Source: a virus
Taxonomy: Duplodnaviria; Caudoviricetes
Virus record (IMG/VR): IMGVR_UViG_3300034341_000337
Coordinates: 1 to 39,118 of that record
Direction: 5' to 3' (one strand)
DNA length: 39,118 nucleotides
The first letter of the stretch is position 1, and each line of letters opens with the position of its first letter. Below, one piece after another: positions 213-39,118 of this stretch. The position numbers were made by a program, and so were the translations under genes. The notes under the pieces were generated by a model. That model worked only from the letters and a program-made list of their open reading frames with translations. It made no database searches and was not told the origin of the DNA.

Positions 213-236
213 TACCAAGGACAGAAAGGACTAAAC

Positions 237-1040: not shown

Positions 1041-3310
1041 TTGTTAGGGGCGGCAAACCAGACCAGGTTAGGCCGTCCCTTTTTGTTTTCGTTGCGATTC
1101 TTCGAGGCTATGCCGTAATCATCGACCAAAACATCCATGACGTCTTTCCGGCGCTTCGGGTCGAGGTTGGCAAAGGCTTTCACCTTGCGGGCAATTTCGC
1201 GTTGTGACATGCCAGCCAGTCCGGCTTGTTCAATTTGCGAATAAACCGCCTTTGATATGCGCTCAAAGTCTCCATCAGCCATGATACGCGACAGGGCGTC
1301 AACCGTTCGTTCAGCGTAAAACGTCACATAGTCACGCGCCCATTTCAGCGAGCTTGTGCTTATTTCGTCTTCCTCTTTTGAACGTGCAATAATCAGGGCG
1401 ACGCGCATTATAATTTCACGGGTCCGGCCAAACATGCTTTCAAGCCCAACCTTGTCGTTTTCATTCATGCGATTGATCATGTAACTTTCAATGTCTTGTA
1501 AGATTTTGTGGCAATCTTTTGAAAATGGGATGACCATAGGATTAGGCGGGTTGTCGTAGCTGTCATGATCGATATCCCCAACAAAAGAGCTTGCACATTC
1601 GTTAAGCCAATTGATTAAACGCTCGCCCGGCTCAATATCTCGGTCAATAATGCGCGACATCTGACGGCCTCTGTGGCTTTCAACAATTAAAAAGCGGCCA
1701 AGAAATCCATCCGAAACATAGCGGCTGGATAGACTGTCATATAGTGTAGACGGTGTTGTCATGCCCAAAAGCGTCAGTGATGGGTGCTTAACTATTCGAT
1801 CAAGATCTGCGGCTTGTGATTTGGTCAGGCCCGTTTTGGCATATCCAATCTGTCTAAGTGTTGCGGCTTGCCTTCCGAAGACTTCCATCAAAGTCGTGTG
1901 GCTATCGGCCTTGTGCTGGTTTCCGGCGGCTTGGCTTGATGCTAGGACGCGGCCTAATTCATCAATGATTGCAATATGATTTGGTTGATTGACAAGTGAT
2001 GAAAAGACGCCAGCGCTTGAAGTATAGCCGCCTGGTCCGATCAATTTATCCAGCCCCGCATGTTCAAGGCAACGCTCAATCACTGTTTTCGCGTGTTCTT
2101 TTCCGGCTGCAGACTTGGCGACATTAATGAAATATAAAGCGCTGTAATTCTGCTGACACGATCGCCAGCGGCGGCCCATAGCGACAGCGCCCAATGCTAG
2201 AGCCGCTTGGACTGCAAATTGGGGCTGCTCTTTTGGAGCCGTGGTTGCGTAAAAAGTGACTACCTCATTCAAAATGCCGGGCACGGTCAGCAAATGTTCC
2301 GGGATATCATCATCTGACTTTTTACCGCCCATGATTGACTGCGCGACTTTGGCGCCATGATCGATGGCTTCCTTATCATACTCAAACGCTGAATCTGATT
2401 GCATTTCCAGCAATTGCGCGGCTTCTCTGACGGCCCTTTGGACATCGCCCGCGTGTTCGTATTGGCAAAACAGTTCGAATGCATCAAAACTATGCGCGCT
2501 ATCAAATGGATCGGACGCATGATGACTGTATGCTGTGTTGTCTTCAAAAACAGAAACGCCAGACAATCCGCTTGTGCTGCGTGGGCTTAGATATCTGTTT
2601 TTGGCTGTGCGCTTGTATCCATAAGCCTGCAGCAACATGTGGATATTATGTTCCTGATTGTAGCGATCAATAACGCTTGTACCTGCTGGCCTTGGTTTGG
2701 CTGGCATAGTCGGTGACTTGTCTACATAGTCTGGATCAATCGATTCCATTTGCGGCTTAAAGCGTTTCCAGTTTTCCCAAAGCATGCGCAATTGTTGCGG
2801 CAGCTCTGGCAACCCTATTTCCAATGATCGACCTGCCCATTCATAAGGCATTCCGGTATCCGGGTGAATACTTGGCGGCAAAACGTCTTGTGTCGAACCT
2901 GCGCGCAATTCGAATATGACCCCGACATTCGGCCATGACAGACTGACACGGCTTTTGATTGTGTCGGGACATTTAAATATTACTTTGGCCCTGCCAGAAC
3001 GTCCGACAATTTGCGGACCTGATGCCAGAATTGCATCATAATCGATGCCAAGAGCAGCCCAACATTGTTTGGTACGCTCGACATCATCTATGTCTATTGC
3101 ACATGTACCGCTGGCGCTGTGAAGCAAGCCCATATTAAATGTCGGGTGCTGTTCATAGTGAATGACCGCCTGGTCTGAATCCACAAGCGCACGCTCGACC
3201 TGTTGCCAGCCGTACGACTTAGGCGCCTTTGATCCCGCCGGGATGCTTACCAGACCCCATTGCATCTTGCTCGTGTAGAAATCTGCCCAGCCACTTGTTG
3301 TTTTTTTCAT
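1037..3310 (-). CDS. Bifunctional DNA primase/polymerase fused to a DUF3987-like helicase/NTPase domain
   Basis: N-terminal Prim-Pol motifs (KAP..GW, NMGL, AIDID, VLPPSIHPDTG..YEW); C-terminal AKSAAGKE Walker A-like and IIDE Walker B; SD AAGGAGA. Confidence 0.85.
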   Translation of the reverse strand: MKKTTSGWADFYTSKMQWGLVSIPAGSKAPKSYGWQQVERALVDSDQAVIHYEQHPTFNMGLLHSASGTCAIDIDDVERTKQCWAALGIDYDAILASGPQIVGRSGRAKVIFKCPDTIKSRVSLSWPNVGVIFELRAGSTQDVLPPSIHPDTGMPYEWAGRSLEIGLPELPQQLRMLWENWKRFKPQMESIDPDYVDKSPTMPAKPRPAGTSVIDRYNQEHNIHMLLQAYGYKRTAKNRYLSPRSTSGLSGVSVFEDNTAYSHHASDPFDSAHSFDAFELFCQYEHAGDVQRAVREAAQLLEMQSDSAFEYDKEAIDHGAKVAQSIMGGKKSDDDIPEHLLTVPGILNEVVTFYATTAPKEQPQFAVQAALALGAVAMGRRWRSCQQNYSALYFINVAKSAAGKEHAKTVIERCLEHAGLDKLIGPGGYTSSAGVFSSLVNQPNHIAIIDELGRVLASSQAAGNQHKADSHTTLMEVFGRQAATLRQIGYAKTGLTKSQAADLDRIVKHPSLTLLGMTTPSTLYDSLSSRYVSDGFLGRFLIVESHRGRQMSRIIDRDIEPGERLINWLNECASSFVGDIDHDSYDNPPNPMVIPFSKDCHKILQDIESYMINRMNENDKVGLESMFGRTREIIMRVALIIARSKEEDEISTSSLKWARDYVTFYAERTVDALSRIMADGDFERISKAVYSQIEQAGLAGMSQREIARKVKAFANLDPKRRKDVMDVLVDDYGIASKNRNENKKGRPNLVWFAAPNN

Positions 3311-3328
3311 AAAAATCTCCTTGGTCGG

Positions 3329-3360
3329 TTGACTTAATATAAGCCATGCTTATAAGTCAA
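3329..3360. promoter_or_regulatory. Overlapping divergent promoters with a central operator
   Basis: TTGACTTA...TAAGTCAA inverted repeat gives a TTGACT -35 on each strand and encloses ATAAGC-CAT-GCTTAT; lies between the divergent primase and recombination operons. Confidence 0.7.
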
Positions 3361-3388
3361 TGGGTAGAAAGAAAGAAAGGATAGATAA

Positions 3389-3766
3389 ATGTCTAATATC
3401 GCTACAATTGCGTCTGCATGGCTTGACGCTAAAAAAGCCGAAAACGCCGCCAAGGAGCGGCGCATCAATCTAGAAACTGAACTATGCGAAGCCTTCGACG
3501 TCAAGGAAGAAGGCACAATTACGCACAGCATAGATGGTTTTAAGATCCAGTTAAATCAGAGGGTATCTCGCAAGGTTGATCCTAAAGCATGGGATCTGGT
3601 GCGTGATAAATGCCCGGAAGTAATCTGGCCGGTCAAGATGGTTCCGACCGTTGACCTGTCCATGATGCGCTGGTTGCAGAACAATGAGCCTGAAATCTGG
3701 GCTAATATTGCAAGAGCGTTCACAACATCCAAGCAGAAAGTAGGAGTGAAAGTAACCAATGATTGA
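3389..3766 (+). CDS. Phage recombination-module protein (Gam/Gp157-like position)
   Basis: N-terminal coiled helix (WLDAKKAENAAKERRINLE); typical position upstream of the AAA/SSB genes; SD AAAGGA. Confidence 0.6.
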   Translation: MSNIATIASAWLDAKKAENAAKERRINLETELCEAFDVKEEGTITHSIDGFKIQLNQRVSRKVDPKAWDLVRDKCPEVIWPVKMVPTVDLSMMRWLQNNEPEIWANIARAFTTSKQKVGVKVTND

Positions 3767-8409: not shown

Positions 8410-8433
8410 TTTATTCTCTTTTATAAAAATTAG

Positions 8434-8483
8434 TAAGCGATGCTTGACAGTGCTTATGAAGCATGGCTTAACAGAATAGTCAA
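8434..8483. promoter_or_regulatory. Divergent promoters with two AAGC-N3-GCTT operators
   Basis: TTGACA 8444-8449 (+) and TTGACT 8483-8478 (-); AAGCGATGCTT 8435-8445 and AAGCATGGCTT 8459-8469 match the motif at 3341-3351. Confidence 0.7.
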
Positions 8484-8497
8484 TAGAGGAGATAGAG

Positions 8498-8922: not shown

Positions 8923-9578
8923 GTGCAGATGCGACAGATGAGACAGACGAAGATCAAGAGTCGCATGAAGAATTCAGCAAAGAAGAGCGCGCTGCTTTTG
9001 AACAAATTCTCGCAGAATTTGATGGAAAAGACATCCCTGCTTGCGATGAGTTTACGCCGATAAATATAGACGACGAATTAAAGAAGACAGAACAGCGTAT
9101 AGCGGAAAACATAACTGCTGCATTAAAAAAGACAGAAGAAATGTATAAAAAGGAAAGAAAAATGAACCTGCTAAAAATAGCCCCAGCTCTGCCGACTATG
9201 GCAATTCCGTTTGGTATTTATTGCGTATTGTCTGCGTTAACCAGCGTGGACTTGATAGATATCATATTTATCCCGACGCTCGTTGGAACGCCAATCGGCC
9301 TGACGGGTGGCGAGTTTATCGTCGGTCTTGGCATCATTGCGCTGGGCGTCGAGATAGCAAAGTCAGTCAGCATCAAGAATATCAGCACAGCCGATCACGC
9401 ATTCTCTACCGTGCTGCTGACGCTCATGGTGCTGCTAGTCTTTGCCGTCAATGGTTTCCAGAATGCCAGCTTTCTTGCGCTGGTGATGCTACAGGCGCTC
9501 GACGTACTGGCTGGTGTGCTTGTGACACTAAGCGTTGCGCGGCGTGACTTTGGCTTTCCGGGCATTGGGAGCGACTAA
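8919..9578 (+). CDS. Acidic N-terminal domain fused to a multi-pass membrane domain; probable internal start at 9162
   Basis: About 4 hydrophobic segments ending LDVLAG...ARRDFG; in-frame ATG 9162 preceded by AAGGAAAG. Confidence 0.75.
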   Translation: MSADATDETDEDQESHEEFSKEERAAFEQILAEFDGKDIPACDEFTPINIDDELKKTEQRIAENITAALKKTEEMYKKERKMNLLKIAPALPTMAIPFGIYCVLSALTSVDLIDIIFIPTLVGTPIGLTGGEFIVGLGIIALGVEIAKSVSIKNISTADHAFSTVLLTLMVLLVFAVNGFQNASFLALVMLQALDVLAGVLVTLSVARRDFGFPGIGSD

Positions 9579-9838
9579 TGACTAAAGGCAAAATGAAAGA
9601 GTGGACACATGATGAGGAAATGGACCTTATCAATTTAACAAGAGACGGCTGGACATTGCGGCAGCTTGCAGAGAGGTTTGGCGTCAGTCGATCAGCAATT
9701 GCTGGTAAACAGAACCGGCTGGACGTTCGTAAGAACAGATCGCCAGCGTCGGATGGGTCCATAAATCATAAAGATCCTTGGAACCCGGCTAGAGATCCAA
9801 AGCCAGACATGGGGGTTAAAATTGTTTTACAAAAGTAA
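9578..9838 (+). CDS. gcrA: GcrA-like protein (N-terminal DNA-binding domain only)
   Basis: WT.....L..L...G.....LA..FGVSRSAIAGK.NRL matches the GcrA N-terminal consensus; the Cys-containing C-terminal domain is absent. Confidence 0.72.
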   Translation: MTKGKMKEWTHDEEMDLINLTRDGWTLRQLAERFGVSRSAIAGKQNRLDVRKNRSPASDGSINHKDPWNPARDPKPDMGVKIVLQK

Positions 9839-10103
9839 ATTGAAGAAGTGCATAGAAGTTGCACAGCCTTACTTCGAAGACGAAATTACAATTGAGAGAT
9901 TACAGAACAGAAGACGCACGAAGGACCATGTCCTGCCAAGATTTTTTGTAATGGGACTTCTGGATAAGAGCAGTCAGTACAGCAGGCGACAGATAGCCAA
10001 CATGCTTAACATGAAAGATCACACTAGCATTTTGCACGGGTGTAATCGTGCATATGAAATATGGGGTGATGAACTGTTTGAGGAATTGCAAACAAATGAT
10101 TGA
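9822..10103 (+). CDS. Stand-alone DnaA C-terminal (domain IV) HTH protein
   Basis: RRTK.HV.PR...M......S..QIA..L..KDHTSILHG matches the DnaA signature RDHTTV.H. Confidence 0.8.
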   Translation: MFYKSKLKKCIEVAQPYFEDEITIERLQNRRRTKDHVLPRFFVMGLLDKSSQYSRRQIANMLNMKDHTSILHGCNRAYEIWGDELFEELQTND

Positions 10104-10224
10104 TCTGAAAGTTATCTTGTTTGCGAAATGGCAAGAACTTTGTGCGTGGGTTTTTGTCGATGAGTACCCAGACGAAGAAAGACATTCGTTTTGGGAATGG
10201 TGGAAAATTAAAATGAGGGACTAA
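10096..10224 (+). CDS. Hypothetical Trp-rich peptide (42 aa; not in ORF track)
   Basis: MIDLKVILFAKWQELCAWVFVDEYPDEERHSFWEWWKIKMRD; overlaps the upstream stop. Confidence 0.5.
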   Translation: MIDLKVILFAKWQELCAWVFVDEYPDEERHSFWEWWKIKMRD

Positions 10225-10227
10225 CCA

Positions 10228-10392
10228 ATGGAACATTATGACTGGCCAACCAATGCAGAGCGAGCATTGGAAATACTAATCAAAGCTGATGACATTGAGT
10301 GGGAGAGCCACGGAAAAGAGGATGTATCGGATCTGCGTAAGCAGGTCACGGAACTGATGAAAGATCCGTATCACAGGGAGCCACCGTTTTGA
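10228..10392 (+). CDS. Hypothetical protein (54 aa; not in ORF track)
   Basis: SD GAGGGA; MEHYDWPTNAERALEILIKADD...REPPF; stop overlaps the next start. Confidence 0.6.
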   Translation: MEHYDWPTNAERALEILIKADDIEWESHGKEDVSDLRKQVTELMKDPYHREPPF

Positions 10393-10577
10393 CAGAGCAG
10401 AAGAAGATAAAAATCATAGTATATTACGATCCGAAACCTATTCCGATTCGAAGATTTGACTGGGAAGCCGTTGATTATGACACTCTGGATAACGCCTACG
10501 ACAGCGTTACAGGATTTGGCGCAACACAAGAAGAAGCAGTAGCTGATCTGATGGAGCGTCTTGATGACCTTGAGTAA
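10389..10577 (+). CDS. Hypothetical phage protein (PIP.R.FDW.A...G.GAT.EEA motif)
   Basis: Coupled TTG start; phage-like small-protein motif. Confidence 0.65.
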   Translation: MTEQKKIKIIVYYDPKPIPIRRFDWEAVDYDTLDNAYDSVTGFGATQEEAVADLMERLDDLE

Positions 10578-10737
10578 GGCAACACAACCCAGCTTCAGAG
10601 AAGCCTATTTTGAAACCTACGTTCCTAAGAAGGGCAAAGTGCCTCTAGGCAAGTGCGTGAAGTGGTTGGTGGTCGATGGCAAAGCCGTGCAATGTGGCAA
10701 GCCATGCAAGCGCCAGAGGTGTGATGATTGCGAGTGA
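10564..10737 (+). CDS. Small Cys-rich protein (57 aa; not in ORF track)
   Basis: SD GGAG; ...KCVKWLVVDGKAVQCGKPCKRQRCDDCE. Confidence 0.55.
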   Translation: MTLSKATQPSFREAYFETYVPKKGKVPLGKCVKWLVVDGKAVQCGKPCKRQRCDDCE

Positions 10738-10801
10738 TTTGACCGTATTTCAGTTTTTTAGTAATGCTTACGAACCTTGTTTGCAAACAGAGGATAAAAA
10801 C

Positions 10802-11008
10802 ATGGCACAAGTTGATCTACCTGAACCAAAAAACATTGGTGAGTGGGCCTTAGACCTGCTTATCGTAATCGCAGCAGTTAAGATTAGTTCGCTGTTCCTG
10901 CTAGCTCCGGGCGTAACAATTGGCGATCAGCCACTTGCTGTTGCGGCTGTCGCTGGTATTGGCGCACTAAGCTATAAGCTGGCACGTCGCTGGGTGGCGT
11001 TCAAATAA
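10802..11008 (+). CDS. Small two-TM membrane protein (68 aa)
   Basis: SD GAGGA before ATG 10802; two hydrophobic helices and a basic C-terminus; possible promoter -35 TTGACC at 10739. Confidence 0.7.
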   Translation: MAQVDLPEPKNIGEWALDLLIVIAAVKISSLFLLAPGVTIGDQPLAVAAVAGIGALSYKLARRWVAFK

Positions 11009-11286
11009 TGGACGAAGTTCTAGCGATCCTGGCTGAGAAGATTTCTGAAAAGGAAACAGAACTCAGCAAACTGCAATCAGCCTATGATTGTATCGCGGAC
11101 CTGTCTGCTGTTGTGGCTCCAGCCGTTGAGGAAGTCGAAGTAGACGACCTTGGCGACGAGCCAGTTGAAGAGACCGCAGCAGAAGCAGATCCAATGGAGG
11201 CGCTCGACGCCGCCGAACAAATCATAATCGACGCGACAGAAGATTATGACGAGGATCTCAACGAGGTTATGAAGCCTTACGAGTAA
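11008..11286 (+). CDS. Highly acidic protein with N-terminal coiled coil
   Basis: TAATG coupling; D/E-rich C-terminal half. Confidence 0.75.
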   Translation: MDEVLAILAEKISEKETELSKLQSAYDCIADLSAVVAPAVEEVEVDDLGDEPVEETAAEADPMEALDAAEQIIIDATEDYDEDLNEVMKPYE

Positions 11287-11291
11287 ACCGT

Positions 11292-11323
11292 TGGGGGCTG
11301 GGTCCGCCTAGCCCCTACATTTT
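11292..11323 (+). terminator. GC-rich hairpin, weak terminator or processing structure
   Basis: TGGGGGCTGGG-TCCG-CCTAGCCCCTA followed by CATTTT. Confidence 0.55.
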
Positions 11324-11332
11324 CGAGGTAAC

Positions 11333-11398
11333 ATGGAAACAGCCATCGTCATCATTTTAGCAATAGGCTGGTTCCTAATGGAGCTTACAGATGCTTGA
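11333..11398 (+). CDS. Single-TM micropeptide 1 (21 aa)
   Basis: SD GAGGT; METAIVIILAIGWFLMELTDA. Confidence 0.55.
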   Translation: METAIVIILAIGWFLMELTDA

Positions 11399-11465
11399 TC
11401 TAATTATCCTGTTTGGTGTCGGATACCTTATCTTTAAAGATTTCGTGACCAAAAAAGATGACTGA
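11391..11465 (+). CDS. Single-TM micropeptide 2 (24 aa)
   Basis: SD GGAG; 8-nt overlap with the previous ORF; MLDLIILFGVGYLIFKDFVTKKDD. Confidence 0.55.
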   Translation: MLDLIILFGVGYLIFKDFVTKKDD

Positions 11466-11574
11466 ATTATTTGCTACGATTGGCGTATGGGCTTTCATCA
11501 TCGCCGTGGGCTACATCATCTGCGAAATTGTCTGGCAGGGATATAGGTTCATATATAATCGCCTAAAAAAATAA
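11458..11574 (+). CDS. Single-TM micropeptide 3 (38 aa)
   Basis: 8-nt overlap with the previous ORF; MTELFATIGVWAFIIAVGYIICEIVWQGYRFIYNRLKK. Confidence 0.55.
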   Translation: MTELFATIGVWAFIIAVGYIICEIVWQGYRFIYNRLKK

Positions 11575-11577
11575 TTG

Positions 11578-11606
11578 TTGACACATGTTAAATGTTTATG
11601 TTCAAT
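11578..11606 (+). promoter_or_regulatory. Putative sigma70 promoter for the small RNA
   Basis: A-tract, then TTGACA 11578-11583, 17-nt spacer, TTCAAT 11601-11606. Confidence 0.55.
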
Positions 11607-11611
11607 CAAGA

Positions 11612-11701
11612 CTTAAGGATCTTAGTTAGTTCCTTTCTCCTTGGTAATGACGCTCTAAGGCCGCGCTTCTTCCCCCCCATTTGGAAGCGCGGCTTTTTTT
11701 T
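11612..11701 (+). ncRNA. Putative trans-acting anti-Shine-Dalgarno small RNA
   Basis: Non-coding segment between a promoter and a terminator; seed TTAGTTCCTTTCTCCTTGGTA is complementary to phage early-gene leaders; 5' end approximate. Confidence 0.6.
11660..11701 (+). terminator. Rho-independent terminator
   Basis: GCCGCGCTTCT / GGAAGCGCGGC stem, C-rich loop, 8 T; sits where the early and late arms converge. Confidence 0.88.
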
Positions 11702-12188
11702 ATTCCGTATAATTAAGCCTGGCCTCCAGCTCCATCAACGCGATCTCATCTGATGTTGGCAACATGCGAGGCATTGGCAGCTCTGGCTCTAGCTCTCTGC
11801 CTAACGTCATGTAGCGAGGACGAGGCTGAGGGCAGATGCTGGCCTTGAACTCAAACGCACGCTCGATGTCTGTCTCCCCACGCTCCATGCAATACGGGTC
11901 CATACGAGATCGGCTACTGCATATCTCTAAACGTGTCGGGCTGTACGGCGCAGCACATAGCGTCTTACCTGCGTTCAAGTATGTATGCTCATTGATCGCC
12001 CAGTCCAAGCACCAGCTCAATGTGTAGATTGTAACTACTGTAATGCCCCCTGCAAACAAAATCATTGTGCTATCAGCCATCAGGCTTAAAGCCTTGGCTA
12101 GTTTTGGACGCTCCCTAAAATCATGGCGCACGATTTTTCTGGCGAACGGCTCTCGCTCATTCGCCATTGGCATTAGCTGGCGCGGCAT
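11700..12188 (-). CDS. Hypothetical membrane-anchored Cys-containing protein
   Basis: One TM segment (MILFAGGITVVTIYTLSW); last gene of the late unit. Confidence 0.7.
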   Translation of the reverse strand: MPRQLMPMANEREPFARKIVRHDFRERPKLAKALSLMADSTMILFAGGITVVTIYTLSWCLDWAINEHTYLNAGKTLCAAPYSPTRLEICSSRSRMDPYCMERGETDIERAFEFKASICPQPRPRYMTLGRELEPELPMPRMLPTSDEIALMELEARLNYTE

Positions 12189-12189
12189 A

Positions 12190-12417
12190 TCAGGTGCCGC
12201 AGGCTGCTAGGATTTTAGTGTTTAGCCGGAAGATTTTGATCGCAGTCTCGTCCGTGTCGTAGATGTTTTCACGACTTTCAAAGTCGCCATCTTTATCACG
12301 CATCGAATATTCAATCGGCTGGATCTGATCGCACAGTGGCTCCGCGATTGTAACTACTGGCTCTGGCAGCGTCGCGCAGTTCGTCACTACTAAGAGCGTC
12401 AAGCTCCCTGCCAGCAT
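12190..12417 (-). CDS. Putative o-spanin (Rz1-like lipoprotein)
   Basis: MLAGSLTLLVVTN-C signal/lipobox-like sequence; overlaps the upstream TM gene; follows the endolysin. Confidence 0.6.
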   Translation of the reverse strand: MLAGSLTLLVVTNCATLPEPVVTIAEPLCDQIQPIEYSMRDKDGDFESRENIYDTDETAIKIFRLNTKILAACGT

Positions 12418-25806: not shown

Positions 25807-28745
25807 TATGCTCTGCCTCCGTCCGTTATGTTCCAGCCATAGGTCGTGGTTAGAACCTCCCTAGAGCTGATTGGGGAATTGTAAGATGCAAGGTTTGGAC
25901 GGGCTGAGTCCGATGGGGCTATGGCTGCGTGGGAGGAGATTTCTTTGACGGAATAAGAAACAGTCATTTGAGCAGCGCCAGACGTTCTTAACTGTACGTT
26001 GCCACCAGCGCCGGGCGTAAACACAAAAGACGTACTAGATGAAAAATAATTTGTGTTTTGCCCAGACTTAAACTCTAGCCTAACATTACCGCTAACGTAA
26101 TTAGATATGGTGACAACAATCTCGTACAGTGTACCGCTGCTTAAAGAAATAGGCTGACCATTAACAACCGTTGCGCTTCCCACATTAACATCAACAGAAG
26201 ATGTATCTGCAAGCTCAGGCCGCGCTGCTGTCGCCGCAGCAACCGTAGCACCACCCGTGTCGGATACGTCTAGCATCATGCCCACAGGATCGCCATCAAC
26301 AGGGACACCGCCTGAACCATTACGGCCCACGCGAAGAGATGTCTTGTCATTGATGTCAAACAATACAGCACCCGTCTGGGCAGCTAGAAGCTCGTAGACA
26401 TCTGCGTATTCAGTCACGTCTGGCGGATCAATAGGAGGCTGTGTGGTCGTGCCTAGATAGTCTTGCAGGACTGTCAGCTCGTCATAGTCTACTTGGCCTT
26501 GGCCCCATGAGCCGCCGTAGAAGCGGCCGTCGAGGCCTGCGGCAAAGCGTAGGTTCCACTGAGTGAACAGCGCAAGACCTTGCGTGTCGCCACTATCATC
26601 GTATGGCGTAATGACCCCTGCGCTATTCGCCCCGTTTGACCGTCCAGATATGCTGTTTGTACCAGCCTGCTCGATAGTCAGAACTTGTTTGTCTTGCGCG
26701 TTAAGGGTCGTAAGATCAACTTGAGCGCTGCTGGAATTGTACCAAGCCCAACCGCCACCATGCCTTACCGCTCCACGATGATCACTTGACGTGCCAAAAG
26801 CCCGCTTCCCTGAACCATCACTCTGCCAAGCCCCCACATGCCACCACTGCTCGCCAAGGTTAAGCGTCGGCTTGACCTCCATCCAGTCGTCTACCCCATC
26901 AGTGTCGAGGTAGTATTTGCGGTCTATGCTGGCGGGGAGTTCTTGGACGATTACGTTGTCGATGGAGCCTTCAAAAGACAAACCTTGCATAAACAAGTAA
27001 GAGCTTCCAGAGCAGCGTATATATTCTGAATGCCAACCTGTTGACGAGACAGAGGTTCCAATACCACCTGCCCCAACAATCGGTCTTATTTGACCGCTAG
27101 TGTATGCGGAAACGTAGAACTGCACAAAGTACCATCTATTCTGCACAATGCTAATTTCATTTGCAGTGCGAAGATTAGAGTTCCCTGCGCCCGTGCGACT
27201 CGCCACCCCACTCCCAATGCTCCAGCCTGTGCCTTTGGTCCAATTACTATCAGTATCAAATGTGCCGTTGGTGACGAGGTTGGGGGTTAGGACTTGTTTG
27301 ACGGAGCCTGCTTGGGTTGTTGTTGTGGATCCAAGCGGCTTTAATGTAACGTAAGTTGTTGTACTTGTTGCAACAAACGTAACGACATTATCTGTTGCGC
27401 CATTAAGGTTTGCAGAATAAAGTTGCGTCCCCAGCGCCGACGTTCCAACATTTAAAGCAACTTGCACCGCGCCCGTGTTGCTAACAATCCACTCGTAAGT
27501 GCCACCAATAACAGTCGTAATCTCATGATAGGCGCGGTCAAAGTTTCCGCCGTTGTCGCGATATAGTGTAATCACCCCATCAGATACCGAAGGAGTGCCA
27601 GACGGATTGCCAAAATCATCGAAAATCCAACCACCATCCGACACCAACTCCGCCCCCCGCTCATCAAACGCGGTTAGGACTTTGCGGACGGAGATGTTGG
27701 AAAACGTTGCACCAAGTGGGGACAGAGGACGAATTGAGAAATACTGATTTCCATCAATAGCTCGGATTTTGACGCTATACGTTCCGTCTGCTGCGGTGCC
27801 GTCTACTGTCTGGGCATCCAAGTCATTTGTGGCGTTGTCCGCCAACTGCATACGGTATGTGCCAGCAGTGTAATTCGATAGAGTGTACGTGATTTCATAC
27901 TCCGCCCCGCTTTCCAAAACGCAGGCGAAGGCGCATCTTGGTCCGCCACCAGACGACACCTGAGAAGTGTAAGAGCCATCGCCGTTGTCAATCCAGTCCG
28001 ATTGCGTTTCAGCGGTGACGCCATCAATCAACTCCTCCCCCCGCTGCCCATTATCCGTAAGCGCAGCAGCCGTCAGGTCGGGATCGTCGAAAAGGACAGG
28101 TCGGGCAGAATCAGATGGGGCTATCGCGTGGTGGCCGGGGATTTCTTTTACGGTAAAAGTAACATCTAAATCTGTAAGATTTCCGCCCCACTCAATCATG
28201 CGAACGATAGCTGTCGACCCGTCAGATTGAAATACAAAATTGTGAATACCAACACCTAAAGCGCCTACGTTGCCTCCCGAAACCGGCCTTATGGTTATGT
28301 TGTCACCTGAAATAGAAGCAATGTTTACGGTAACTTCATAAAACCTTCCGCTTACACCGTCAAATTGGCCGTTTATTGTTTGCGATGTGGCAGGTGTACC
28401 GTTACTTAATGTAAACCTTCCGCCACCTTCATTAACTATTTCACCGAAAACACTAGCTGCTCCGTCTGCAAACTCGTTTGTCGCCCCAGCCAGATAATCC
28501 TCTGCGGTCTTGCCTCCGAGCTGTGAGGTGTCAAGCATGACCCCAACAGGATCACCCACCACAGGCTGACCACCGGAACCGTCCGTGCCTACCCTCAAGG
28601 ACGTCAAATCAGCAGGATCGTAAAAGACGTTGGTGTTGCTGGCGGCTTCTTCTTTTTGAAGAATATCAAAAAACTGGCTTGCAATTGATTTCACCAACGA
28701 CATGACGCCGCGAAAACGGAACCTAAAACGCGAACGTCCTGTCAT
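25806..28745 (-). CDS. Modular tail/adhesin protein with a duplicated LamG-like scaffold and inserted beta-sandwich modules
   Basis: Two copies each of TSLRVG..GSGG.PV.GDPVG.MLD.S and AIAPSDSARP.L; modules such as LVTNGTFDTDSNWTKGTGWSI; YYLDTDGVDD. Confidence 0.75.
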   Translation of the reverse strand: MTGRSRFRFRFRGVMSLVKSIASQFFDILQKEEAASNTNVFYDPADLTSLRVGTDGSGGQPVVGDPVGVMLDTSQLGGKTAEDYLAGATNEFADGAASVFGEIVNEGGGRFTLSNGTPATSQTINGQFDGVSGRFYEVTVNIASISGDNITIRPVSGGNVGALGVGIHNFVFQSDGSTAIVRMIEWGGNLTDLDVTFTVKEIPGHHAIAPSDSARPVLFDDPDLTAAALTDNGQRGEELIDGVTAETQSDWIDNGDGSYTSQVSSGGGPRCAFACVLESGAEYEITYTLSNYTAGTYRMQLADNATNDLDAQTVDGTAADGTYSVKIRAIDGNQYFSIRPLSPLGATFSNISVRKVLTAFDERGAELVSDGGWIFDDFGNPSGTPSVSDGVITLYRDNGGNFDRAYHEITTVIGGTYEWIVSNTGAVQVALNVGTSALGTQLYSANLNGATDNVVTFVATSTTTYVTLKPLGSTTTTQAGSVKQVLTPNLVTNGTFDTDSNWTKGTGWSIGSGVASRTGAGNSNLRTANEISIVQNRWYFVQFYVSAYTSGQIRPIVGAGGIGTSVSSTGWHSEYIRCSGSSYLFMQGLSFEGSIDNVIVQELPASIDRKYYLDTDGVDDWMEVKPTLNLGEQWWHVGAWQSDGSGKRAFGTSSDHRGAVRHGGGWAWYNSSSAQVDLTTLNAQDKQVLTIEQAGTNSISGRSNGANSAGVITPYDDSGDTQGLALFTQWNLRFAAGLDGRFYGGSWGQGQVDYDELTVLQDYLGTTTQPPIDPPDVTEYADVYELLAAQTGAVLFDINDKTSLRVGRNGSGGVPVDGDPVGMMLDVSDTGGATVAAATAARPELADTSSVDVNVGSATVVNGQPISLSSGTLYEIVVTISNYVSGNVRLEFKSGQNTNYFSSSTSFVFTPGAGGNVQLRTSGAAQMTVSYSVKEISSHAAIAPSDSARPNLASYNSPISSREVLTTTYGWNITDGGRA

Positions 28746-38964: not shown

Positions 38965-39118
38965 AACCTCAAAATTGAAAAAAATTCTGGGGGGGAATGC
39001 AAAAATAATTGTCCGCCGCCGCCGGGAGGGGGTCATACCCCTCGACCGTACGGAACGTACCGTACTCTCAGCGGTTGACGTTACGTCACCCAGAACGGAC
39101 CGTACACGTCGCCGAATC
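38965..39118. other. Structured non-coding end region (candidate packaging/terminus signals)
   Basis: A and G homopolymer runs, hairpin 39026-39043, CGTAC x4, palindrome TGACGTTACGTCA 39076-39088. Confidence 0.35.

Follow-up and report, generated by a model that had tools for sequence, protein, structure and literature searches.

The virus record analysed here in full (the window; 39,118 bases, with seawater runs as its source) carries at 11612–11701 on the plus strand what is probably, as judged from its sequence, a trans-acting phage antisense small RNA (sRNA), with fewer targets than a sequence-only reading had first proposed. We lean, with little more than even confidence, towards a promoter-driven or 3′-derived sRNA that would block the leader of the first early gene in trans, with the primase ribosome-binding site (RBS) as a second predicted target. 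Every string and coordinate quoted in the sequence-only reading was recovered in its place.

The window is a marine P22-like podophage. PHROG comparison of 53 proteins identified, on the minus strand from 38923 to 11700, a P22-type portal, scaffold, coat, Ad3/Hc3 connectors, ejection proteins and endolysin. To the left arm it assigned primase, Sak4, SSB, a Cas4-like exonuclease and helicase; the scan of these 53 proteins turned up no integrase. The candidate RNA element is located exactly at the junction of the early and late arms. The stop codon of the last small early ORF (11458–11574, plus strand) lies 3 nt 5′ of the -35 box, and the last gene of the late/lysis arm (11700–12188, minus strand), to which a family search assigned no family, ends in the terminator U tract. 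A second hairpin within the early arm (11287–11325; GGGGGCTGGGTCCGCCTAGCCCC plus a T run), kept in the relatives L078, L079 and G001, is a possible internal terminator 250 nt 5′ of the predicted promoter. The host is probably an alphaproteobacterium, because GANTC is depleted in the window (0.52 of expectation) and a GcrA-like HTH gene at 9593–9838 gave a weak match to Pfam PF07750 (25.5 bits, below cut-off). A Sak4 search of GTDB genomes returned two matches, neither naming a host.

Two close relatives (L082 and L168) carry an extra 1.0–1.3 kb of early genes between what are the last and first bases of the window, and so the window probably lacks this piece (L082:2725–4000; L168:285–1250; three or four small early genes, an HTH gene and a (TA)n run). 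The piece has the promoter TTGATA-17-TATGTT in L082 and gene leaders of the form AAGGAG/AAGGAAC-AACAAAC. At the window's own left end (1–175) stand AAATGAC/GCCAT repeats, a C-run/G-run hairpin and a TATATA tract, and at its right end (38985–39118) ACGT-rich repeats; both are possibly origin or packaging signals. Divergent promoter pairs at 3325–3365 and 8420–8490 have a common near-palindrome (TAAGCCATGCTTA / AAGCATGGCTTA) between facing TTGAC boxes, each copy beside an HTH or replication gene, and this is likely an operator.

The predicted promoter (11578–11606, plus strand) consists of TTGACA at 11578–11583, a 17-nt spacer and TTCAAT at 11601–11606, with an A-rich stretch upstream. The -35 box is perfect and the proposed arrangement is in place, but TTCAAT is a poor -10 and a consensus scan did not list the promoter; TATGTT at 11597–11602 is an alternative -10. 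Other likely phage promoters (177, 8444 and 38949) likewise combine TTGACA with loose -10 boxes, and the background of TTGACA in the sequence is 0.5–0.7 per kb on both strands. The predicted RNA is about 90 nt long (11612–11701, 5′ end probably at 11608–11613). Its fold, calculated for 11612–11702, was more stable than that of most shuffles (z = -2.6; 1 of 200 equally stable) and comprised, in order, a 5′ hairpin, a mostly open stretch and an 11-bp terminator. The 21-nt seed (11626–11646), which is complementary to the first early leader, contains the overlapping anti-Shine-Dalgarno (anti-SD) motifs UCCUUUCU and CUCCUU. The 5′ hairpin (11615–11635) hides the 5′ half of the seed and displays UUAGUUA in its loop, and the 3′ half of the seed is mostly open. 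A loop-closing stem between CTTAG (11621–11625) and CTAAG (11655–11659) had been suggested; both strings are present, but the 5′ hairpin forms instead in the predicted fold.

The intrinsic terminator (11660–11701, plus strand) has an 11–13-bp stem, a 12-nt loop with C7 (11672–11678) and a U tract. Described earlier as strong, it folds as an 11-bp stem followed by U8; the consensus scan did not list it because of the 12-nt loop. Across six sequences, 75 of 75 cells in the stem were paired and 1 of 13 pairs had changed on both sides, covariation that was not above shuffles (105/500). The invariant C7 loop (TTCCCCCCCA) has a second, same-sense copy on the minus strand (38989–38998), 5′ of the late promoter. 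Possible targets of this loop, G-rich leaders or AUGGGGG starts (569, 9809 and 29390 of G001), were too short to tell from chance. The stretch had been described as free of ORFs. A 53-codon ORF (11592–11753) does overlap it, but this frame has no RBS and is stopped at codon 6 in both relatives of the same type (L078 and L079), so the description as non-coding stands. By its sequence, this non-coding stretch between a promoter of its own, albeit with a weak -10, and an intrinsic terminator has the general anatomy of trans-encoded base-pairing sRNAs (50–200 nt).

Relatives were found via the neighbouring lysis-arm gene: one IMG/VR record (G001) and seven metagenome loci (L073–L079). The element, consisting of TTGACA, 5′ hairpin, pyrimidine tract and C7-loop terminator, was present in seven of these eight junction-spanning loci (G001, L073–L076, L078 and L079) and absent from L077, which has another cassette at the junction. 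Five alleles occur in two unrelated upstream contexts. Alleles A0 (window and L078) and A1 (L079) follow a small membrane ORF; alleles B0 (G001), B1 (L073 and L074) and B2 (L075 and L076) follow the GcrA-like gene, which in these relatives lies directly 5′ of the RNA and includes TTGACA within its 3′ end. In all eight sequences, the window included, TTGACA lies 83–96 nt 5′ of the terminator stem core, the 5′ hairpin forms, a U/C-rich tract stands exposed, and the loop of the terminator varies only between C7 and C8. TTGACA is missing from the end of the GcrA-like gene in the window itself. In G001, the early block that in the window runs up to the element closes with neither TTGACA nor the RNA. 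The box is thus absent where the RNA is absent, in both contexts, and moves with the element rather than with the upstream gene. In L079, TTGACA, the spacer length and both -10 candidates are kept while the spacer sequence has changed, and in its 5′ hairpin one pair has changed on both sides and a U-U mismatch has become G-U (a comparison of two sequences only).

These constancies bear on the reading that the stretch is inert, no more than the early arm's 3′ UTR and terminator, in which cassette recombination stranded an inverted leader copy. Correct spacing of TTGACA in two unrelated contexts, a 5′ hairpin built from different sequences in all five alleles, and a U/C-rich tract with CUCCUU or CUCCCUU in every allele although the remainder turned over all argue against it, and we consider it unlikely. 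It draws on the weak -10, the absence of the element from L077 and the junction itself, a cassette hotspot where L077 and G001 carry other cassettes and hairpins; the early leader is moreover a repeated module, inverted capture of which would give a long match without selection. Conservation was likewise not clearly higher in the element than in neighbouring ORFs (differences at 3/66 positions in 11635–11700 and 5/24 in the 5′ hairpin, against 15/206 to 39/242 in ORFs).

The relationship between G001 and the window is one of strong mosaicism. The lysis module is common to both (93–97%), capsid and terminase differ, and the replication module of G001 is of the ERF type. The early-gene block of the window (10094–11555) forms the opposite arm in G001 (C1:30760–33010), and some tail genes are common. 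A cassette linker, GCCCC...GCGGGGTTT.GGGTGCC plus an RBS, precedes small genes at L082:4555–4635 and L077:3790–3860 (minus strand), which is the first early operon in L082 and the early/late junction in L077; the same linker at two sites suggests repeat-mediated cassette shuffling. A candidate second sRNA in G001 (26004–26125) proved to be a cassette RBS in reverse complement and was discarded. Contigs from runs of four studies hold alleles of the element (A0 in X5, X8 and X12; B1 ends in X8, X12 and X20), with A- and B-type alleles in the same runs. The sole RNA run, X20, which consists of assembled contigs without strand or ends, contained a B1-type contig and none over 11469–11660.

Searches for further members suggest a narrow family. 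Rfam gave no match at gathering score in the window and only sub-threshold matches at E up to 10, and blastn of 11300–12300 against 50,697 annotated phages gave no match. The exact seed 16-mer occurred at 29 loci in IMG/VR, behind none of which stood the terminator. The terminator-stem pattern occurred at 31 loci, one of which was the element itself; a pattern of TTGACA plus the C-loop gave 18 loci, none with the element, and the terminator loop was found in none of the GTDB genomes searched. A model of the element (R1) recovered only the 8 known copies in 90 sources, and none in the whole records of 48 Sak4 relatives, of which only 3 were at least 90% complete. From these patterns and the model, the family looks narrow, or else distant members have diverged past the model.

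The main predicted target of the seed is the leader and SD of the first early gene (213–234, plus strand; ATG at 237), with TACCAAGGA at 213–221, GAAAGGA at 224–230 and CTAA at 231–234; this takes up almost all of the 5′ UTR that follows the promoter at 177–205. Gene 237 had no family, and an atlas search led to unnamed clusters only. Complementarity to nearly the whole of this leader, as claimed in the sequence-only reading, was confirmed: it was the best site genome-wide on both strands (-25.0 vs. -19.9 kcal/mol for the next), and with the whole 40-nt 5′ domain it still ranked first, narrowly (-27.6 vs. -26.9). In full-RNA cofolding with a panel of 57 curated leaders (28 early and 29 late, starts chosen by eye), the 237 leader again ranked first (-21.2), followed by those of 584 (-17.6, a loose duplex), 8737 (-16.2) and the primase at 3310 (-15.5 kcal/mol); the best late leader reached -13.5. 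It had been argued that a match extending beyond the SD bases speaks against chance, and this holds for the 237 leader. None of 80 dinucleotide shuffles with free seed choice reached -25.0 on any of the 57 leaders. When the 12-nt anti-SD core was held constant, 3 of 1500 control seeds did so, as did 71 of 5000 control leaders in which the SD cores were held constant. In the stricter full-RNA cofold with shuffled decoys, 1 of 25 reached the best energy.

A relative fetched by its Sak4 protein and not by its leader (L082) shares the window's first gene; the leader of that gene runs colinear with the seed, 20 of whose 21 bases pair, and the second early gene has a similar leader. The top three seed sites within its 9.6 kb are early leaders (-29.6, -28.0 and -19.6). 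In L168, which was fetched by the leader pattern and is hence biased, all 21 seed bases pair, with two bulges. L168 and contigs of X5 and X20 carry the same promoter and leader before different genes, so that the leader is the constant part of a cassette array. L082 and L168 stop short of the RNA locus and no contig joins an RNA allele to a changed target allele, and seed-target covariation was therefore not shown. In the ERF-type G001, the best four sites of the A0 seed are not leaders, and for allele A1 the leader match was not first in the genome scan. Leaders of the type CCAA-N-AAAGGAACUAAAC in 10 loci without similarity to the window pair at -15.6 to -22.5. Part of the 237 match is therefore generic: a common strong leader of this kind accounts for about two thirds or more of the pairing energy.

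The same controls weigh on the idea of a general anti-SD decoy for host mRNAs, in which the match to phage leaders would be a by-product of strong SDs. Anti-SD loops are common in alphaproteobacterial sRNAs (PMC4615179). The B alleles fit such a decoy in having long U/C loops without a clear target in their own genome. Two anti-SD motifs lie in the seed, one of which presumably resembles the 16S 3′ end of Alphaproteobacteria. The match, however, runs 4 nt past the SD cores on each side and beats the core-fixed controls (3/1500 and 71/5000). Moreover, when a 16S anti-SD motif was used, the 237 leader was not first and no early/late bias appeared (p = 0.31). We hold the decoy to be improbable.

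Among the other claimed targets, the primase RBS (3316–3325, minus strand; ATG at 3310; ACCAAGGAGA at 3325–3316) was upheld at moderate strength only, with 10 bp to the open half of the seed and fourth place among the 57 leaders; 9 of its 10 bases are kept in L084. Three further sites fell inside the range of the late leaders: the recombination-operon leader (3360–3381, plus strand; ATG at 3389; AGAAAGGA at 3374–3381) with -8.5 for A0, the AAAGGAA site at 9149–9155 (leader of 9162) with -9.2, and the leader of gene 10228 (10217–10228, plus strand; 11 of 12 paired, the 12-mer ending on the A of the start codon) with -10.7 kcal/mol when the RNA's own hairpin was counted. All three are weak because the 5′ hairpin hides bases that they need. 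Single-base covariation of seed and target at gene 10228 was not found, the RNA of L079 having changed and the leader not.

A preference for early leaders was seen in part. Early leaders paired more strongly than late ones (p = 0.0015; 0.011 without the top four), but 23 of 25 shuffled decoys leaned likewise. The lean of the real RNA was -2.86, compared with at most -2.26 for decoys, one of which had a lower p. Leaders of the GAGGU type, which the seed does not match, make up 9 of 29 late and 1 of 28 early leaders. B0 showed no early preference on the G001 leaders (p = 0.29; best -10.0 early and -10.2 late). GGAGAAAA leaders were counted by motif in G001 (2), L073 (1), L075 (2), L077 (1) and the window (0), and one orthologous leader reads GAGGAUAAAA in three A-type genomes and GAGGAAAAAA in one B-type genome; the use of GGAGAAAA leaders by B-type genomes was rejected as support, since the energies did not bear the motif count out.

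In the mechanism that we favour, blocking of the first early leader, its own TTGACA promoter would drive the RNA from the point where the early and late arms meet. The open 3′ half of the seed (UCUCCUUGGUA) would first pair with ACCAAGGA, a string common to the 237 leader and the primase RBS. On the 237 leader, pairing would then spread into the 5′ hairpin and unzip it, giving a duplex that covers the SD and all but a little of the 5′ UTR, stops 2 nt short of the AUG and should block ribosome binding. As the RNA builds up, it would damp the first early mRNAs and act as delayed negative feedback on early expression; late leaders would be largely spared because they are mostly of the GAGGU type. 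A shutdown timed to the early-to-late switch and an action on host mRNAs, both put forward in the sequence-only reading, are conjectural. Alternatively to its own promoter, cleavage of the early transcript near its 3′ end may release the RNA, which would leave the mechanism unchanged. The seed is probably an inverted copy of the lineage's repeated early leader minus its start codon. It ends where the start codon of the leader would begin and has no minus-strand start behind it in four of five alleles, which fits inverted capture; such capture explains the match and does not prove its use. An inversion site formed by leader and seed was considered and rejected, with no recombinase among the 53 proteins scanned and a gapped repeat.

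The pairing of the B alleles lends itself to a wider reading. Their best site is the 3389 leader of the window (-17.5, -22.9 and -21.3 for B0, B1 and B2; about 18 bp), and B1 also pairs 9/9 with the primase RBS; in Sak4-type phages these two sites flank a single divergent promoter. The match to the 3389 leader was not above shuffles (12/60 and 6/60) and could stem from base composition, from an exchange of modules or from an action against competing phages. We entertain, as a rather doubtful extension, a mobile sRNA cassette whose C-loop terminator is invariant and whose seeds, each a captured mirror image of an early leader, can be exchanged; it would both time the phage's own early genes and silence co-infecting relatives. 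Entry and replication genes of relatives would be silenced, and the B-type RNAs of ERF-type phages would be aimed at the divergent primase and recombination leaders of Sak4-type phages. If true, this would amount to one phage excluding another by means of an RNA, in a marine lineage that is lytic.

Superinfection exclusion proper, in which the sRNA silences the first genes of incoming relatives and variable seeds track the leaders of competitors, appears to us very doubtful. It is suggested by the A0 seed, which pairs more strongly with the L082/L168 leaders (-24.3, -22.8 and -30.7, L168 having been picked by leader pattern) than with its own (-21.2), by the pairing just described of B alleles, which sit in ERF-type genomes, with the Sak4-type window, by the co-occurrence of both allele types in the same runs, and by the roles of c4 and STnc6030 in immunity or exclusion (PMC12197685). 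The shuffles for the 3389 leader tell against it, mismatch between RNA and own leader can stem from module exchange in mosaic genomes, and the window, with no integrase among its scanned proteins, gives no evident sign of a long resident phase. That the tract is the RBS of a minus-strand gene or part of the plus-strand ORF is largely refuted and deserves scarcely any weight, for although the ORF exists and most of the 29 exact 16-mer matches in IMG/VR resemble RBS reverse complements or coding sequence, no ATG, GTG or TTG lies on the minus strand within 20 nt behind the SD-like tract in four of five alleles (the TTG in B0 is not conserved) and the plus frame is broken in both A-type relatives.

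The blocking of an early leader that we propose would resemble the action of c4 of P1/P7, a phage RNA that blocks, in trans, the RBS of an mRNA of its own phage, with specificity between related phages set by sequence differences (PMC12197685). The target of c4 is the antirepressor (ant) mRNA, with a role in lysogeny and immunity (PMC12197685), whereas here the targets would be the first early leader and the primase RBS, in a phage without an integrase match. No antirepressor was found among the 53 proteins scanned, the best target being the leader of gene 237, and Rfam C4 gave no gathering-score match in the window and was not among the 13 matches to E 10 at 11450–11800. The element is also like Cuckoo (RSs0680/CcsR, alpha-r14), a small hairpin RNA with anti-SD motifs from what is probably the same host class. 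Cuckoo RNAs have 2–4 hairpins, each with CCUCCUCCC in its loop (PMC4615179), whereas the seed here is one long tract matched to a specific leader; CCUCCUCCC was absent from all five alleles, and Rfam gave no match to Cuckoo/alpha-r14.

ErsA/Pseudomon-1 (RF01719) and 6C (RF01066) likewise have a C-rich loop on a terminator-like hairpin, the likeness being confined to that loop. ErsA was the best sub-threshold Rfam match (29.3 bits, E = 5.6e-4 in the window and 21.6 in G001; gathering score 50); 6C scored 20.1 and 18.6 bits against a gathering score of 47, and the element has one C-rich loop where two hairpins define 6C. 6C RNA binds mRNAs via its C-rich loops (PMC6486639), and terminator loops can have regulatory roles (PMC11979758).

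The predicted RNA would further resemble phage trans sRNAs of about 100 nt that are expressed in the lytic cycle, namely sRNA1 and sRNA2 of PAK_P3, PreS and LPR1 of lambda, and VpdS of VP882 (PMC4933390; 10.1101/2024.10.31.621285; PMC12197685). Few sRNAs of virulent phages had been described as of 2016, their functions unknown, those of PAK_P3 included; sRNA1 of PAK_P3 is late and has an 11-nt match inside an early ORF (PMC4933390). PreS differs in that it activates host dnaN (10.1101/2024.10.31.621285), and VpdS in that it acts on the Hfq network (PMC12197685). Complementarity to a whole early 5′ UTR is not described for the PAK_P3 sRNAs, PreS or VpdS in the accessible parts of these sources (PMC4933390; 10.1101/2024.10.31.621285; PMC12197685). 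Our search of the literature outside subscription journals found no lytic phage for which an RNA mirroring one of its early leaders is described. What is known of the down-regulation of early genes in lytic phages that use the host RNA polymerase mostly concerns transcription. By comparison, an RNA that mirrors the first leader of its own phage would constitute a protein-free timer at translation, and with a 90-nt RNA, a 25-nt leader and natural alleles of both, the case is readily testable.
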